Source of the DNA: Candidatus Aenigmatarchaeota archaeon
Lineage (GTDB): Archaea > Aenigmatarchaeota > Aenigmatarchaeia > GW2011-AR5 > JAGGXF01
Direction of reading: 5' to 3'
NCBI GenBank assembly: GCA_029932645.1
Contig: JAOZPR010000003.1
Coordinates: forward strand, 17,987 to 28,030
Length of the DNA stretch: 10,044 nucleotides
This document shows positions 4,607 to 10,044 of this stretch, piece after piece. Position numbers and translations under genes: made by a program. How positions within the stretch are numbered: position 1 is the stretch's first letter; each line of letters starts with the position of its first letter. The notes under the pieces are model-generated. The model worked only from the letters and a program-made list of their open reading frames with translations, searched no databases and was not told where the DNA came from.

Positions 4607-4836
4607 TTGATACCGCATGTCATCACTAAAAACACTTTCGATGCCAAAATTAATAAAGTTAATGAAAAGTCAGGAAAGAAGAAAGTTATTAATAGTACTG
4701 AGAAATTAAAAGAGAATAAATTTAAGCGGCTCGGCTTTGATTAGACATCGTTTCTCATATTGTTTTTCAAATCCTGCGGAAAGCCATTAAAAGCGTGGGT
4801 GACATATTATTCATAGTGTGTTTTTGGTGCGTGGTT

Positions 4837-5211
4837 ATGGTAAAGACGTATAGAAAGGGATATGCTGCTGAGAATCAGCTGGTTCATTTGCTTTATGCGC
4901 GCGGCTATGCGGTCATGCGCGCGCCGCGGTCTGGCCGCGTCGGCCTGCCAACGCCGGACCTTGTTGCGATTAAGGGCAAGAAGGTTTTGGTCATAGAATG
5001 CAAGTCGCGAAAGACTGGTTTTACTGTGGAACGCGAACAACTAGAACAGCTGAAGGAATGGAAAAGGCGTACTGGCGGCGCTGCGTATATAGCATGGAAA
5101 CGGACACGGCTAGGCTGGCTGTTTCTGAAGTTAGCGGACGTTATAAAAAACAAAGGTAACGTCGGAAAAAAGTTCGCTGAAGAATATGGTATAAAGATTG
5201 ATGATATATAA
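4837..5211 (+). CDS. hjc: Archaeal Holliday junction resolvase
   Basis: KGYAAENQL, AVMRAPRSG, PDLVA and IECKS form the Hjc PD-(D/E)xK signature; about 124 aa. Confidence 0.92.
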   Translation: MVKTYRKGYAAENQLVHLLYARGYAVMRAPRSGRVGLPTPDLVAIKGKKVLVIECKSRKTGFTVEREQLEQLKEWKRRTGGAAYIAWKRTRLGWLFLKLADVIKNKGNVGKKFAEEYGIKIDDI

Positions 5212-5294
5212 GAATAAAAAATGAGGAATAGCAAACAAAGCATAACAAATATCTGCTCTTGGCGCCATCAGCGCACATTTGTTTTACTGTTTTA

Positions 5295-5316
5295 GCACTG
5301 TACCTGCACTGTACCT
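5295..5316. repeat. 11-bp perfect tandem duplication GCACTGTACCT x2
   Basis: Read directly; a degenerate third unit (ACTGT in register) lies at 5284-5294. Confidence 0.8.
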
Positions 5317-5342
5317 GGCATATAAAAAACCTTTAAAAACAT

Positions 5343-5373
5343 TTCGACGTTTATAAAACTAGTATTCGACGTT
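5343..5373 (+). promoter_or_regulatory. Direct repeat TTCGACGTT x2 flanking a TATA-like TTTATAAA, upstream of the HTH regulator
   Basis: Copies at 5343-5351 and 5365-5373 (22-bp spacing), with TTTATAAA at 5350-5357. Confidence 0.6.
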
Positions 5374-5456
5374 GTTTTTGGGTGTTAATTTTGACAGAAA
5401 ACAAAAAAGAAGTGGAAAGAACACATAAAAAAGCAGGAGGAAGTGAAAGTCAAAAC

Positions 5457-6173
5457 ATGGTAGAAGAATTTGAGCTAGCTAGAGACAGAATAGCCAAAAA
5501 AATCGCTGGCGAGGTTTGTTTGGCTGATCGACCGGGCGCTGTCATAAAGAAATGGCGTCATATCATGAAGATAGCACAGCGGGAACTGGCTGAAGAAGTC
5601 GGCGTCATGCCTTCTGTTATCAGTGATTATGAATCTGGTCGAAGGAAGTCTCCTGGTATCAGGGTTGTAAAAAAAATTGTTGATGGTCTATTAAGCATAG
5701 ACGAAAAGCACGGTGGCAAGCTTATCAAAGAGTTCTCAAACTTTCCTGAAACCGCAGCGATAAGTAATGCTATACTTGATATACGAGAATTCACAGAAGC
5801 CGTGAGTATTAAGAAGGTTGCAAAGGCTGTGGATGGCGAAATTATCCTGAATTTTGGCGAGAAAGACATATACGGCTATACAATAATAGACTCACTAAAA
5901 GCCATTGTTGAGTTTTCTCCAATGGAACTGGTAAAACTTTATGGCCTGACCACAGAAAGGGCGTTAATATTCACAGGCGTCTCGACAGGCCGGTCACCAA
6001 TGGTTGCGATTAAAGTCACCAATCTAAGGCCGGGTCTTGTTGTCATGCATGGAACAAACCGGGTCGATGAAATAGCCAAGAGGATTGCAAATGCTGAACA
6101 GATACCACTAATTCTCTCGAAGGCAAAATCTGTCAAAGAACTTATGAATAGCCTTAGAAAAAAATTCACATAA
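5457..6173 (+). CDS. XRE/Cro-type HTH transcriptional regulator with C-terminal DRTGG-like domain (archaeal COG1709-like)
   Basis: IAGEV..PG..IKKWR..QRELA..PSVISDYESGRRKSPG is the HTH; RALIFTGVSTGRSPMVAIKV..P.LVVMHG is the C-domain. ATG 5457 chosen; the ORF is open from 5382. Confidence 0.88.
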   Translation: MVEEFELARDRIAKKIAGEVCLADRPGAVIKKWRHIMKIAQRELAEEVGVMPSVISDYESGRRKSPGIRVVKKIVDGLLSIDEKHGGKLIKEFSNFPETAAISNAILDIREFTEAVSIKKVAKAVDGEIILNFGEKDIYGYTIIDSLKAIVEFSPMELVKLYGLTTERALIFTGVSTGRSPMVAIKVTNLRPGLVVMHGTNRVDEIAKRIANAEQIPLILSKAKSVKELMNSLRKKFT

Positions 6174-6205
6174 ACATAAGGTTGGACATAAATAAGAACT
6201 AAAAA

Positions 6206-7030
6206 CTAAACAAGAACTTCTAACCAGGCTGCTATAATTATTAAAACCTCTGCCGCCACCAAAAACAAGAAGGCGTCCCTAAAAACCTCTTTGAATTCTG
6301 GCGTTGTGAACTTTTCCCTGGTTATTGCCACGGACAGAATACCACCACCTATACCAACCAAGAAATATGCTGCTACCTCTGGTATACCATGAATTAAAAT
6401 CTGGCCAAGGCCCAAAGGAACGCCGTATAGATATGCCACATGTGTAGCCATTCCTGTTTTAATCAAAGATTCTATAAACAGGCCGACAAACACACCGATA
6501 ACAGAAGCGTTCCATGCCAAAATAAAGACAGCTCCAGAACCGAACAACACACTTGTAAGAAAAATTAAAACGAGAACGCTTGTGTTGTTTATGAGTATGC
6601 GCCAAAATGCTGCGTCAAACAATGCATGTCCTGTTGCCTGTGTTGATATGCTCTCAAGTGTTTTTGCTTGCAAAGAAAAAACATTCTCACCAATTCCCGG
6701 CAAGAAGATATAAACAAAACTGGTTGCAACTATTATTCCAAGGAAAAAATACGAAAAAATTGTTATGATTTGTCTGTGGCGCTGAAGAAGCCCCTGGTGT
6801 ATCTTTCCTTCTGCTTCTTCTTCATCTTTTCTCTCCTCTATCGAAAACAAATGTTGAAAAAACGGAACGAATAGAATGGTTATAAAGGCTATTGTCAATA
6901 TTGAAATTTCGGATGGGAATAGCACGTTGGAAATAAAAATGGCTATGAATGTGAATATTACTGCTATAAAAAAAACGTGCCACGGCTTTTTTTCAGCATT
7001 GTGTGGGTCTATGATTGACTCGAGGACCAT
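6206..7030 (-). CDS. SpoIIM-like (DUF95) integral membrane protein
   Basis: Several hydrophobic helices with ILINN, WNASVIG and HGIPEVAAY motifs typical of the family. Confidence 0.82.
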   Translation of the reverse strand: MVLESIIDPHNAEKKPWHVFFIAVIFTFIAIFISNVLFPSEISILTIAFITILFVPFFQHLFSIEERKDEEEAEGKIHQGLLQRHRQIITIFSYFFLGIIVATSFVYIFLPGIGENVFSLQAKTLESISTQATGHALFDAAFWRILINNTSVLVLIFLTSVLFGSGAVFILAWNASVIGVFVGLFIESLIKTGMATHVAYLYGVPLGLGQILIHGIPEVAAYFLVGIGGGILSVAITREKFTTPEFKEVFRDAFLFLVAAEVLIIIAAWLEVLV

Positions 7031-7065
7031 GTTAAACTAATATCAGCCGGATAATAAAAAGGTTT

Positions 7066-7425
7066 CTAGAAAAGATGATATGCTTTACCAATCCTGTGGC
7101 CTGGTATATATTTTATTCCTGTGTCGAACAACTCTTGTTTGCTCATTGGTTTTTTGTCTAGCTTCTTTAAATCGGTCTCCTTAACAACCCAGAAGTGGTC
7201 TATACCAGGGAGTGCGTTTGTTTTAAAAAAGGCCTTATATTCTTTTACTTTTTTTACGTCGATTTTTTCCCTATATTCTTCTAAATTTATTTCTTCTGTT
7301 AGTTCTCGGTTGAAAAAGAATTGAAAATATTTTGGCAACCCCTCTGCTTTAAGAGCAGCAACGAGTGCTTTGTTGTCTTCGACACCGGTCCAACCGTCTT
7401 TTTTTCGGCCAAAACCAAGACGCAT
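7066..7425 (-). CDS. Hypothetical protein (119 aa)
   Basis: SD GGTGA about 7 nt before ATG 7425; divergent from HMG-CoA synthase. No family recognised. Confidence 0.7.
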   Translation of the reverse strand: MRLGFGRKKDGWTGVEDNKALVAALKAEGLPKYFQFFFNRELTEEINLEEYREKIDVKKVKEYKAFFKTNALPGIDHFWVVKETDLKKLDKKPMSKQELFDTGIKYIPGHRIGKAYHLF

Positions 7426-7496
7426 ATTAATCACCAATTAAATATGCTCATGAAAATTATTAATCCGTGTCGTCGTAATGCAGGCGTACTTCGTTT

Positions 7497-7551
7497 TTCG
7501 ACGTTTGGCGTGTTCGACAATTTTTTATTCGACAGCGCAAAGGACTTAAAT
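7497..7551 (+). promoter_or_regulatory. Three TTCGAC boxes followed by a candidate BRE/TATA for the HMG-CoA synthase operon
   Basis: TTCGAC at 7497, 7513 and 7528, then GCAAAGG-A-CTTAAAT ending about 24 nt before ATG 7575 (leaderless spacing). Confidence 0.55.
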
Positions 7552-7574: not shown

Positions 7575-8621
7575 ATGTTTGATATGGTTGGTATAGTTGG
7601 CTGGGGTGCCTACATTCCACGCTACAGGATAAAAACAGGGGAAATCGCACGCGTGTGGGGTAAGGACCCAGAAACTATTACAAAAGGCTTAGGAATTATT
7701 GAGAAATCCGTGCCTGCTTTGGACGAGGACACAGTAACCATATCAGTCGAAGCTGCTCGGAATGCGCTTGCACGTGCTGGTATAGACCCAAAAGACATAG
7801 GGTCTGTTTATGTGGGGTCAGAATCGCACCCATATGCTGTAAAGCCCTCTGGAACAATTGTTGCAGAGGCGTTGGGATGCGGCCCTGAACTGACCACAGC
7901 AGACCTTGAATTTGCCTGTAAAGCTGGCACAGCCGGCATGCAAATTATATTGGCACAGGTAAAGGCAGGTATGGTAAAATATGGTTTAGCTATCGGCGCA
8001 GACACATCCCAGGGAAGGCCGGGCGATGCACTAGAATATTCGGCTGCAGCAGGCGGCGCTGCATTTATAATCGGATCCAACCCTGCTGTGGTTATGGAAG
8101 AAACATATTCTTACACAACAGATACGCCAGATTTTTGGAGGCGCGAAGGACAGGACTACCCAAAACATGGTGCGCGCTTCACAGGCACGCCTGCATATTT
8201 CAAGCATGTCATAAATGCCACACACGGCCTCTTGGAAAAGGTGGGCCGAAGCATGGAAGAATATGATTATGTTGTTTTTCACATGCCCAATGCAAAATTT
8301 CCAATCAAAGTGATGAAACATTTTAAAATACCAAAAGAGAAATACCTACCCGGTCTTGTTGTAACCCGCGTTGGTAATTGCTATTCTGGTTCGTCGCCAC
8401 TCGGCTTAAGCGCGGTTCTAGATATCGCAAAACCAGGCCAAAAAATATTAATGACCTCGTTTGGGAGTGGGGCAGGTTCTGACTCTTTTTCATTTTTAGT
8501 AAAGGAAAGCATCTTGGAGAAGCAAGACAGGGCTCCAAAAACAGAAGAATATATCGAAAAGAATAAGCAGTATATTGATTACGGCACTTATGTGAAGATG
8601 AGAAAAAAGCTGAAAATATAA
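7575..8621 (+). CDS. mvaS: Hydroxymethylglutaryl-CoA synthase, archaeal type
   Basis: [11 protein letters not shown] (catalytic Glu), EFACKAGT (Cys), VFHMPN (His), [14 protein letters not shown] and SFGSGAGSD. Alternative start ATG 7584. Confidence 0.96.
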
Positions 8622-8648: not shown

Positions 8649-8701
8649 ATAGCGTTGCGGGATAGCGTTATGGAATAGGTGTTGTGAAATAGTGTTGTGA
8701 A
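8649..8701. repeat. Four degenerate ~13-bp tandem repeats (ATAGYGTTRYGRR)
   Basis: ATAGCGTTGCGGG / ATAGCGTTATGGA / ATAGGTGTTGTGAA / ATAGTGTTGTGAA, starting at 8649, 8662, 8675 and 8689. Confidence 0.65.
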
Positions 8702-8705
8702 TATT

Positions 8706-9872
8706 ATGAGAGATGTTGCTGTTGTTGGTGTTGGTGAAACCGCATTTGGCGAGCACTGGGAAAAGTCTCTGAGAGACTTGTCAGTAGCTGCAGGTGTGGC
8801 AGCCATCAGAGACGCGGGTATAGAAGGCGCTGATATTGAAGCCATGTATATTGGTAATATGAGCGGCGGTCGGTTTGCAGGACAAGAACACCTTGCTGCT
8901 CTGGCCGCAGACCAGTCAGGGCTTGTCGGTATTCCATCAACCCGTGTTGAAGCTGCCTGCGCATCCGGAGGCCTCGCATTCAGGCAGGCGTGCCTGGCTG
9001 TTGCATCTGGTAGGTATGATATTGTTATAGCCGCAGGCGCCGAAAAAATGACAGACCTTCAGACAGTAGACGTAACAACAACGCTTATGGGAGCAGGAGA
9101 CCAAGAATGGGAAGGATGGCTTGGAATGTCTTTTCCTGGGCTTTACGCTCTAATGGCCAGAAGACACATGTATGAATACGGCACAACAAAAGAACAAATG
9201 GCGCTTTTCTCTGTTAATGGCCATAAAAATGCTGTGCTGAACCCAAATGCCCAGTTCCGGTTTGAAATCACAGTAGAAGATGTTTTGAAATCTGCGCTTG
9301 TTGCTGACCCGTTGCGGCTTTTAGACTGTTCTCCTATTACAGACGGCGCTGCTGCTGTTATAGTAGCCTCAAAAGACATTGCTAAAAAATTCAAAAATCC
9401 AATATGGCTTCTGGGGTCTGGGCAAGCAACAGATGCGCTGGCGTTACATGATAGAAAAAGCTTGACATCGCTCCGGGCCGCAAAAATTGCTGCTAAGCAG
9501 GCGTATAAACAGTCCAGAACCGTACCAGAAAAAATAGACGTTGCAGAGGTCCATGACTGCTTTTCTATAAACGGTTTGATTGCTCTGGAAGATTTGGGCT
9601 TTTGTGGGGTTGGAAAATCTGGAAAATTTATAGAAGAGGGTAATATAAAGAGGGGGGCCGCGGTTTCTATAAACACAAGCGGCGGCCTGAAGGCAAAAGG
9701 ACATCCTGTCGGCGCAACTGGGGTGTCGCAGATCGTTGAAATAGTGAAGCAGTTGCGTGGGGATGCAAAAAAAAGGCAGGTGCACGCAGACTTTGGGTTG
9801 ACGCATAATGTTGGCGGTTCTGGAGCAACTGTTGTTGTGAATATTTTAGGCAAGGACCCAATAGAGCGGTAG
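8706..9872 (+). CDS. Acetyl-CoA acetyltransferase (archaeal acetoacetyl-CoA thiolase)
   Basis: RVEAACASGG (catalytic Cys), GAEKM, EVHDCF, GHPVGATG and HNVGG; lies between HMG-CoA synthase and DUF35. Confidence 0.95.
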   Translation: MRDVAVVGVGETAFGEHWEKSLRDLSVAAGVAAIRDAGIEGADIEAMYIGNMSGGRFAGQEHLAALAADQSGLVGIPSTRVEAACASGGLAFRQACLAVASGRYDIVIAAGAEKMTDLQTVDVTTTLMGAGDQEWEGWLGMSFPGLYALMARRHMYEYGTTKEQMALFSVNGHKNAVLNPNAQFRFEITVEDVLKSALVADPLRLLDCSPITDGAAAVIVASKDIAKKFKNPIWLLGSGQATDALALHDRKSLTSLRAAKIAAKQAYKQSRTVPEKIDVAEVHDCFSINGLIALEDLGFCGVGKSGKFIEEGNIKRGAAVSINTSGGLKAKGHPVGATGVSQIVEIVKQLRGDAKKRQVHADFGLTHNVGGSGATVVVNILGKDPIER

Positions 9873-9880
9873 TGGTGAAA

Positions 9881-10044
9881 ATGACTCATAGATCATCTGT
9901 TGCATTATACTGGCGATTGTTTGAATCTAGATATAACTTAGTCGGTAACAGGTGCCTTGTTTGCGGAGAATGTTTTTATCCAGCAAGAATCGTCTGCCCG
10001 AACTGCAGAAGAAAGGGCGTCTTAAAAAAAGAAGTGTTGTCTGG
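9881..10044 (+). CDS. DUF35 Zn-ribbon/OB-fold scaffold protein (5' part, truncated by the window end)
   Basis: Manual translation MTHRSSVALYWRLFESRYNLVGNRCLVCGECFYPARIVCPNCRRKG..., with CxxC-x10-CxxC. SD GGTGA at 9874-9878. Confidence 0.92.
   Translation, partial: MTHRSSVALYWRLFESRYNLVGNRCLVCGECFYPARIVCPNCRRKGVLKKEVLS

Follow-up and report, generated by a model that had tools for sequence, protein, structure and literature searches.

The stretch analysed here (the window, 10,044 nucleotides in all; G000:C26:17987-28030) belongs to the genome of a Candidatus Aenigmatarchaeota archaeon (G000; 718,593 bp, 43 contigs, 41% G+C) and carries a gene for a predicted transcriptional regulator and, further downstream on the same strand, genes for the entry into the mevalonate pathway. 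The regulator gene (5457..6173, + strand) codes for 238 aa that comprise an XRE-type helix-turn-helix (HTH), a helical linker, and a DRTGG-like alpha/beta C-terminal domain (C-domain); the longest open reading frame (ORF) spans 5382-6173 with a GTG start (263 aa), and since orthologues align only from residue 21-35 of this frame, the ATG at 5457 is the likely start. The second group opens with an archaeal-type 3-hydroxy-3-methylglutaryl-CoA (HMG-CoA) synthase gene (HMGS; 7575..8621, + strand; TIGR00748 562.6 bits against a cut-off of 353.35, NF003274 560.1 bits), followed directly 3' on the same strand by an acetoacetyl-CoA thiolase gene (8697..9872, + strand; Thiolase_C_1 150.9 bits, Thiolase_N 108.2 bits) and by the start of a DUF35 gene (9872..10044, + strand), recognised by its rubredoxin-like zinc ribbon (PF12172, 27.7 bits, cut-off 23.2). 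The DUF35 gene leaves the window and then meets a run of N, into which its OB-fold part falls. Named homologues of the regulator also assign the genome to the Aenigmatarchaeota (DPANN). Copies of one short box precede both the regulator gene and HMGS, and comparison across archaea lends good support to the proposal that the encoded protein would regulate its own gene and the HMGS operon.

An earlier note on this DNA had pointed to the hexamer TTCGAC, present twice before the HTH gene (5343, 5365) and three times before HMGS (7497, 7513, 7528), and all five positions are correct; likewise, 5342-5352 and 7496-7506 both read TTTCGACGTTT, which has no further copy on either strand of the 718,593-bp genome. 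At the regulator promoter, box 1 (5343..5351, + strand) and box 2 (5365..5373, + strand) both read TTCGACGTT, with box 2 exactly 22 bp past box 1, and the TATA box TTTATAAAA (5350..5358, + strand) sits between them, straddled as had been described. Box 1 abuts the TATA box with a 2-nt overlap, at the position of the B recognition element (BRE), and scores 12.2 with the position weight matrix introduced below. TATA-like hexamers of G000 peak at -30..-26 from the ATG (82 versus ~20 per other 5-nt bin, 250 genes), so that transcription of the regulator gene is predicted to start near 5380, leaving a leader of ~75 nt to the ATG at 5457. Box 2 would then fall downstream of the TATA box and before the first transcribed base, and box 1 would occupy the BRE position. 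The sharpness of the same peak implies a leaderless mRNA for many genes of this DPANN genome; a Shine-Dalgarno-like word occurs at -18..-4 in 97 of the 250 genes.

The HMGS promoter has a different arrangement of the same element. Box 1 (7497..7505, + strand) reads TTCGACGTT (score 12.3) and lies by a degenerate TTCGTT box at 7490; box 2 (7513..7521, + strand) is TTCGACAAT, the consensus form, whose score of 14.2 makes it the top intergenic match genome-wide; box 3 (7528..7536, + strand) is TTCGACAGC, with 9 nt from its end to the TATA hexamer. This hexamer, TTAAAT (7546..7551, + strand), stands at -29 from the ATG and falls in the genome's TATA peak, so the boxes do lie just upstream of BRE/TATA, and the HMGS mRNA is probably leaderless. 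In the same-genus genome G001, box 1 reads TACGACGTT, an allowed variant, and box 3 is conserved; the counterpart of box 3 in the relative G014 is ATCGACTGCGCAAA.

The window contains 11 copies of TTCGAC on both strands, a count that none of 200 dinucleotide-preserving shuffles reaches (mean 3.63, sd 1.76, largest 10). The one additional plus-strand copy seen by the earlier note (7378) is not the only one, since another exists at 2818, and the four minus-strand copies (3146, 5638, 7123, 7746) all lie within called ORFs. Over the whole genome, intergenic DNA holds no excess of the hexamer (21 of 230 copies, against 10.8% of the bases). Pairs at most 40 bp apart number five in the whole genome, three of them in the regulator and HMGS promoters, and the 150-bp upstream regions (n=746) divide into 717 with no copy, 25 with one, two with two, and two with three. 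The exact 9-mer TTCGACGTT has six genomic copies, three of them in the two promoters, and when two mismatches are allowed, the window is not enriched in it (30 found, 28.3 expected). Among the other copies, one lies in the coding sequence of a NUDIX gene beyond the right end of the window and one, probably by chance, on the opposite strand inside the coding sequence of a polyprenyl (GGPP-type) synthase (G000:C9:2626). Single TTCGAC hexamers upstream of an RFC-like AAA gene, glutamate dehydrogenase, a phosphoribosyltransferase, and ribosomal protein S13 were treated as chance because they are lone boxes without a link to lipid genes. An inverted pair GTCGAA...TTCGAC, 27 bp apart, is found at G000:C32:13520-13552, 1.1 kb downstream of HMG-CoA reductase; a phosphoribosyltransferase gene follows it, and the contig ends 70 bp away.

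Strain variation was read from the contigs of four public DNA runs. No variant falls within the boxes; 10 variable sites lie upstream of the regulator and 6 in the HMGS intergenic region, too few for a footprint, and these 6 all come from one strain, beside a replaced segment. The alignment of the G000 and G001 promoters does not discriminate the boxes, because entire blocks are conserved and the boxes are not singled out.

Orthologues of the regulator were gathered from 41 genomes of the same order (G-numbered) and from 37 public loci (L-numbered), and their upstream regions were read. An element of ~9 bp, W-T-C-G-A-C-R-W-T, with TTCGAC as its core, recurs in these promoters in the forms TTCGACAAT, TACGACAAT, and ATCGACAAT. 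Words were counted in 42 regulator promoters (-120 to -1) against 338 further upstream regions from these loci, with enrichment assessed by Fisher test over 3225 words: CGACAAT is the top 7-mer (14/42 versus 5/338, p 3.6e-11), which bears out an enrichment of the motif in orthologous promoters, and GACAAT and CGACAA lead among the 6-mers. Moreover, with one relaxed 8-nt box pattern used throughout, box pairs at exactly 22 bp occur in 11 of the 42 regulator promoters, against 1 of the remaining 747 upstream regions of G000, as well as in 9 of 30 Methanosarcinales regulator promoters and 18 of 24 Thermoplasmata HMGS promoters; no different spacing in the range of 14 to 31 bp is seen more than 3 times. 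The arrangement of box, TATA, and box seen in the window returns in G001, G002, G008, G025, L052, L055, L063, L064, and L066. The predicted operator, first taken to be the hexamer TTCGAC, is revised to an asymmetric box of ~9 bp, canonically present in two copies 22 bp apart at the TATA box, and the regulator promoter of the window conforms to it.

From 40 regulator promoters, none of them of G000 or G001, a 13-column matrix was built and applied to the 120-bp upstream regions of G000 (n=750). The HMGS promoter ranks first (14.2) and the regulator promoter fourth (12.2), and only 20 of the 750 regions reach a score of 7. The second-best upstream site (G000:C24:40235-40252, L182:2736-2753) consists of two inverted boxes that overlap, TTCGTCAATTGTCGTA, located where a TP_methylase-family gene (- strand) and a family-less 93-aa ORF (+ strand) diverge; its 16-mer form recurs in the Methanosarcinales regulator promoters L108-L110, and it may mark a further member of the regulon.

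The link between the regulator and the HMGS operon extends to other archaea. In a sample drawn from the order of a Methanohalobium metagenome-assembled genome (L065/G041), hereafter Methanosarcinales, the regulator is present in 44 of 61 genomes and lies immediately 5' of HMGS, on the same strand, in all 30 fetched loci. A wider sample of the same phylum contains it in 73 of 101 genomes, with the order regulator-HMGS-thiolase in 19 of 21 additional loci and one more regulator gene adjoining HMG-CoA reductase. In an order of Thermoplasmata, 50 of 51 genomes have the regulator, and in 28 of 30 loci the thiolase gene lies ~430 bp upstream of it on the same strand; the full order HMGS-thiolase-DUF35-regulator is seen in L070, L072, and L075. 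The regulator thus stands at opposite ends of the operon in Methanosarcinales and Thermoplasmata, with the linkage kept. The boxes follow: all 24 distinct Thermoplasmata HMGS promoters carry AATCG[A/T/G]CA[A/T]T abutting the TATA box (matrix 7.7-14.4), and in the 18 with a 22-bp pair the second box lies exactly 22 bp upstream, at a TCGTT-N4-AACGA palindrome. Among the Methanosarcinales regulator promoters, 24 of 30 reach a score of at least 7 at -64 to -68, and 28 of 30 have a pair of CG dinucleotides separated as CG..22..CG, typically TTCGTCAAATGACGA followed by ATTCGTTAGG and then TATA. Taken together, these layouts indicate the same half-site with 11/22-bp phasing and a proximal copy that takes the BRE position in the HMGS-driving promoter.

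Aenigmatarchaeota show a looser linkage. HMGS was found in 33 of the 41 genomes of the order and the full-length regulator, by single-sequence and profile searches, in 12 of 41; where both are present, the regulator lies at most 5 kb from HMGS in 6 of 10 relatives, and G002 shows the order hmgA-regulator-SpoIIM-HMGS. A Hjc resolvase gene, the regulator gene, and, on the opposite strand, a gene for a SpoIIM-like membrane protein (in the window 4795-7030; SpoIIM-like gene at 6206..7030, - strand, PF01944 46.8 bits) form an order common to many Aenigmatarchaeota (L039, L050, L054, L056, L057, L059, L061, L074), also where HMGS is not nearby. Boxes at the HMGS promoter tend to go with the presence of the regulator: a score of at least 7 is reached at HMGS in 5 of 10 regulator-bearing relatives versus 1 of 21 without it (p 2.9e-4 by Mann-Whitney test, with no correction for kinship), and the lone box-positive genome without the regulator, G038, has a weak HTH match. 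Near-matches found by eye lift the regulator-bearing set to 7-8 of 10, namely a palindrome GTCGAAaaaattTTCGAC in G028, TTCGTCAAT together with ATCGACTGCGCAAA in G014, and a box just outside -120 in G022. Three genomes of family f8 (G009, G015, G019) have a shorter relative (open frames of 200-202 aa) whose match to the regulator profile is limited to its HTH third (positions 8-85), and they have no HMGS match.

The regulator protein itself joins a predicted DNA-binding domain to a second domain. HTH_3 (PF01381) matches residues 55-101 of the 263-aa ORF with 33.2 bits (cut-off 23). An AlphaFold model made from a 35-sequence alignment (predicted local distance difference test, pLDDT, 83.7; predicted template modelling score, pTM, 0.71) comprises an N-terminal helix, the HTH (~26-60), two linker helices, and an alpha/beta domain (106-236), of which ~113-238 is taken as the DRTGG-like part. 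Model residues 21-80 superpose by VIA-align on ClgR, DdrO, C.AhdI, SinR, and P22 c2 with Z 6.7-7.6 and a root mean square deviation (rmsd) of 1.9-2.8, a range of Z common enough that it supports the Pfam HTH_3 match and would not stand alone. For the C-domain (model residues 109/115-238), on which the DRTGG-like assignment is likewise made with VIA-align, the best match is 2ioj_B (Z 13.3, rmsd 2.4, 113 aligned), followed by 3l31_A (Z 12.0, rmsd 2.4, 114 aligned), and the next unrelated rows have Z 7-8. Foldseek with the same model returned no match at E <= 0.001, its top entry being 2ioj_A with a template modelling (TM) score of 0.74 on the target; the Pfam scan gave no DRTGG (PF07085) match at E <= 0.01, and matches in a sequence search of the PDB cover the HTH part alone. 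With a fold match and no Pfam match, the domain is called DRTGG-like and is not filed as a Pfam member. The fold suggests a regulatory or dimerisation module and names no ligand; ligand sensing by the C-domain would be compatible with it. The prediction of a two-copy homodimer scored 0.01 and gives no answer either way.

A number of observations weigh against the proposal, above all against a role of the regulator that is dedicated and universal. Among the HMGS-bearing genomes examined, 21 of 31 do without the regulator, and in families f2, f3, and f5, HMGS is present in 23 of 23 genomes and the regulator in 0 of 23. In the regulator-bearing G008 (87% complete) and G025 (85%), HMGS was not found, and G025 has both boxes. 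Three other regulator-bearing genomes (G002, G018, G007) have no boxes at HMGS, with scores of 2.9 or less. When G000 and G001 are left out, the promoter contrast falls to 3/8 versus 1/21 (Fisher p 0.052), and the kinship of these genomes means that the p values claim more independence than there is. HMGS lies within the fetched flanks of only 5 of the 37 public loci, so that the regulator must have other or additional roles in most Aenigmatarchaeota. The HMGS boxes of the window are spaced by 16 and 15 bp instead of the canonical 22. Seven of the eight best matrix matches in G000 fall in coding sequence and score as high as the promoters; the box carries little information. Lastly, hmgA, where the earlier note had proposed to look for the motif, has no box upstream in G000, so the whole pathway is not covered.

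Set against these points are the boxes in orthologous promoters, the matrix trained on other genomes, the nearly box-free HMGS promoters of genomes that do without the regulator, and the adjacency of regulator and HMGS in three phyla, and it is on their account that the core idea is considered strongly supported. The claim of the earlier note that the HTH protein regulates both itself and the HMGS operon accordingly stands as far as box conservation, matrix, and neighbourhood are concerned; as a general requirement of HMGS it does not. With boxes before its own gene and before the HMGS operon, the protein is a candidate regulator of isoprenoid lipids, and the chance that it recognises the boxes, acts as a repressor of its own gene, and governs the HMGS operon is put at roughly two in three.

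The mechanism would be as follows. The 238-aa protein would act as a sequence-specific transcription factor that recognises, through its XRE-type HTH, an asymmetric half-site of ~9 bp, W-T-C-G-A/T-C-R-W-T, and joins to it a DRTGG-like C-domain, which probably oligomerises and/or senses a metabolite. Because 22 bp equal two helical turns, the two boxes of the regulator promoter would lie on the same face of the DNA, box 1 where TFB contacts the BRE and box 2 between the TATA box and the start. As the boxes bracket the TATA box, the bound protein would compete with TBP/TFB or with RNA polymerase, with negative autoregulation as the expected outcome. The three boxes upstream of the HMGS BRE/TATA, 1.4 kb away, would bring the initial committed steps towards mevalonate under the control of this protein as well. 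For the direction of control at HMGS, the earlier note had proposed that the protein represses itself and activates HMGS, a reading that draws on box position only. In G000, the HMGS boxes lie upstream of the BRE, which would be compatible with activation; the core-promoter strengths of HMGS (52nd percentile) and of the regulator (46th) give no hint of activation or repression, and an average HMGS core promoter offers nothing that argues for the need of an activator. The box at the BRE position of the HMGS-driving promoter in Methanosarcinales and Thermoplasmata suggests repression there.

A broader statement can be advanced tentatively, with somewhat less confidence than an even bet would require: the XRE-DRTGG family may be a widely conserved, metabolite-sensing regulator of mevalonate entry that binds an array of TCG-A/T-C-A-A-T with 11/22-bp phasing at the TATA box of HMGS-thiolase-DUF35 in DPANN (Aenigmatarchaeota), Thermoplasmatota, and Halobacteriota.

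Two other explanations survive about equally well, and both are improbable. The boxes could be the real operator of another transcription factor, of which the HTH gene and the HMGS operon are merely co-regulated targets; such a possibility draws on the shortness and low information content of the box and on the other DNA-binding proteins that the genome encodes, but in three phyla the box accompanies the promoter of the regulator gene itself, and autoregulation typically shows itself by such a site, kept before a factor's own gene over distances as great as these. Boxes are also nearly absent from the HMGS promoters of relatives that do without the regulator (1/21), which speaks against a different factor.

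Alternatively, and with an equally small chance, autoregulation through the 22-bp pair could be real and the HMGS boxes of the window fortuitous, or they could serve a small divergent ORF (7066..7437, - strand; 123 aa, likely start at ATG 7425) that shares the intergenic region with HMGS. The irregular 16/15-bp spacing, the divergent position of the site, and the three regulator-bearing relatives that are box-free at HMGS would fit this, but the HMGS promoter tops 750 regions for a matrix trained elsewhere, and the boxes are nearer to the ATG of HMGS (39-78 nt) than to that of the small ORF (72-111 nt). The small ORF itself makes a poor target. It has no Pfam or NCBIfam match, and an Atlas search with it gave merely scores of 0.81 to unnamed bacterial clusters; its homologue is confined to G000 and G001 and aligns in two reading frames in G001. 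Strain contig X4 replaces 7065-7390 with 298 other letters, and strain contig X2 joins 7066 to 7439 and skips the ORF, in both cases with unchanged boxes. Moreover, genomes of family f7 keep the boxes at HMGS and lack this ORF, and the regulator is linked to HMGS in other phyla. The small ORF is thus probably not the target of the boxes.

That the boxes are a lineage-typical, BRE-like core-promoter feature or a chance product of AT-rich intergenic DNA is very hard to credit: the proximal box does occupy the BRE position in Thermoplasmata and Methanosarcinales, and TTCGAC is not enriched between genes, but CGACAAT is present in only 5 of 338 other promoters, only 20 of 750 upstream regions reach a score of 7, the BRE-position consensus of G000 is A-rich and without CG, boxes also stand 22 bp from the TATA box and downstream of it, and no shuffle in 200 reaches the count of the window.

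Besides HMGS and thiolase, G000 has HMG-CoA reductase (C32), polyprenyl synthase (C9), and GHMP kinase (C27), and the retention of these five genes together with a putative dedicated control element in a genome of 0.7 Mb argues that the pathway is in use and no relic. Beyond the window (G000:C26:28335-34155), the DUF35 gene is followed by orc1/cdc6, the NUDIX gene, a Metallophos/PolD-small-subunit-like gene, and a family B DNA polymerase; a run of N interrupts the gap that precedes orc1/cdc6, and the region could be a replication origin.

To our knowledge, the transcriptional control of archaeal isoprenoid membrane-lipid synthesis is largely unexplored. If the broader reading is right, the protein would be the first regulator dedicated to the synthesis of membrane-lipid precursors in archaea, setting the supply of isoprenoid precursors, and it would be open to direct study in the genetically tractable Methanosarcina: since cultivated, tractable methanogens carry the regulator-HMGS operon, deletion, chromatin immunoprecipitation sequencing (ChIP-seq), and ligand screens are feasible. 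The analysis supplies, as a testable hypothesis, a protein family, an operator box with 22-bp phasing, and a target operon, HMGS-thiolase-DUF35. Full-text searches, subscription journals being outside their scope, returned no description of the regulator, its box, or its link to HMGS, and no regulator of the archaeal mevalonate pathway; passages of two papers on HMGS, ACAT, and DUF35 (PMC12960953, bioRxiv 10.1101/2024.07.05.601840) likewise do not describe them. Possible names for the family or its neighbours gave no identification: COG1709 and COG1395 are listed as archaea-specific regulators in Table 2 of PMC1852104, and the regulator could not be mapped to either; for MJ1545, considered with MJ1546, the same kind of search found no paper.

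Several known systems share parts of the proposed one. The archaeal repressors Phr, MDR1, and LrpA work at the TATA box or transcription start in front of the genes that encode them, and the predicted sites of the present regulator likewise flank or overlap the TATA/BRE and the start site of its own gene, a placement that implies occlusion of TBP/TFB or RNA polymerase, the mechanism here being read from position; those proteins belong, unlike the one of the window, to the winged-helix, DtxR-like, and Lrp families. In sequence, the HTH is nearest to that of aMBF1 (EDF1/MBF1 entries of the PDB at E 6e-4 to 3e-3, TIGR00270 at E 2.9e-4), but the C-terminal domain differs and the score of 20.7 bits against the TIGR00270 cut-off of 110 makes the regulator a non-member. 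The C-domain resembles in fold the DRTGG domains of AF1212 from Archaeoglobus fulgidus (2ioj) and of the Clostridium perfringens CBS-pyrophosphatase (3l31/3l2b), at 11-15% sequence identity. We know of no role of these two proteins as transcription factors, and the function of the DRTGG fold is not established, so that the resemblance predicts no ligand. The only regulator of archaeal lipid metabolism returned by the full-text searches is FadR of Sulfolobus acidocaldarius, a TetR-family protein that is reported (PMC6449355) to be experimentally characterised and to control genes of fatty-acid metabolism. Like FadR as portrayed there (PMC6449355), the present factor is encoded beside the lipid-related cluster that it would control; it differs in its fold family, which is not TetR, and in its putative target, isoprenoid precursor synthesis instead of fatty acids. 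The XRE or lambda-repressor-type regulators SinR (1b0n), ClgR (3f51), DdrO (6rnz/6jq1), and SaPI Stl (7p4a) have in common with it the HTH_3 fold, an N-terminal DNA-binding domain followed by a second domain, and several operator repeats with sites at the own promoter (predicted ones in the present case). In contrast, the DRTGG-like C-domain is found in none of them, their palindromes at sigma-70 promoters give way here to asymmetric direct repeats at 22 bp on an archaeal TATA box, and the target would be a lipid-precursor operon. An autoregulated HTH factor encoded beside its target operon is, therefore, a familiar kind of system; what appears to be new, as far as could be seen, is the combination of domains, the layout of direct repeats 22 bp apart on a TATA box of archaeal type, and the putative target pathway.

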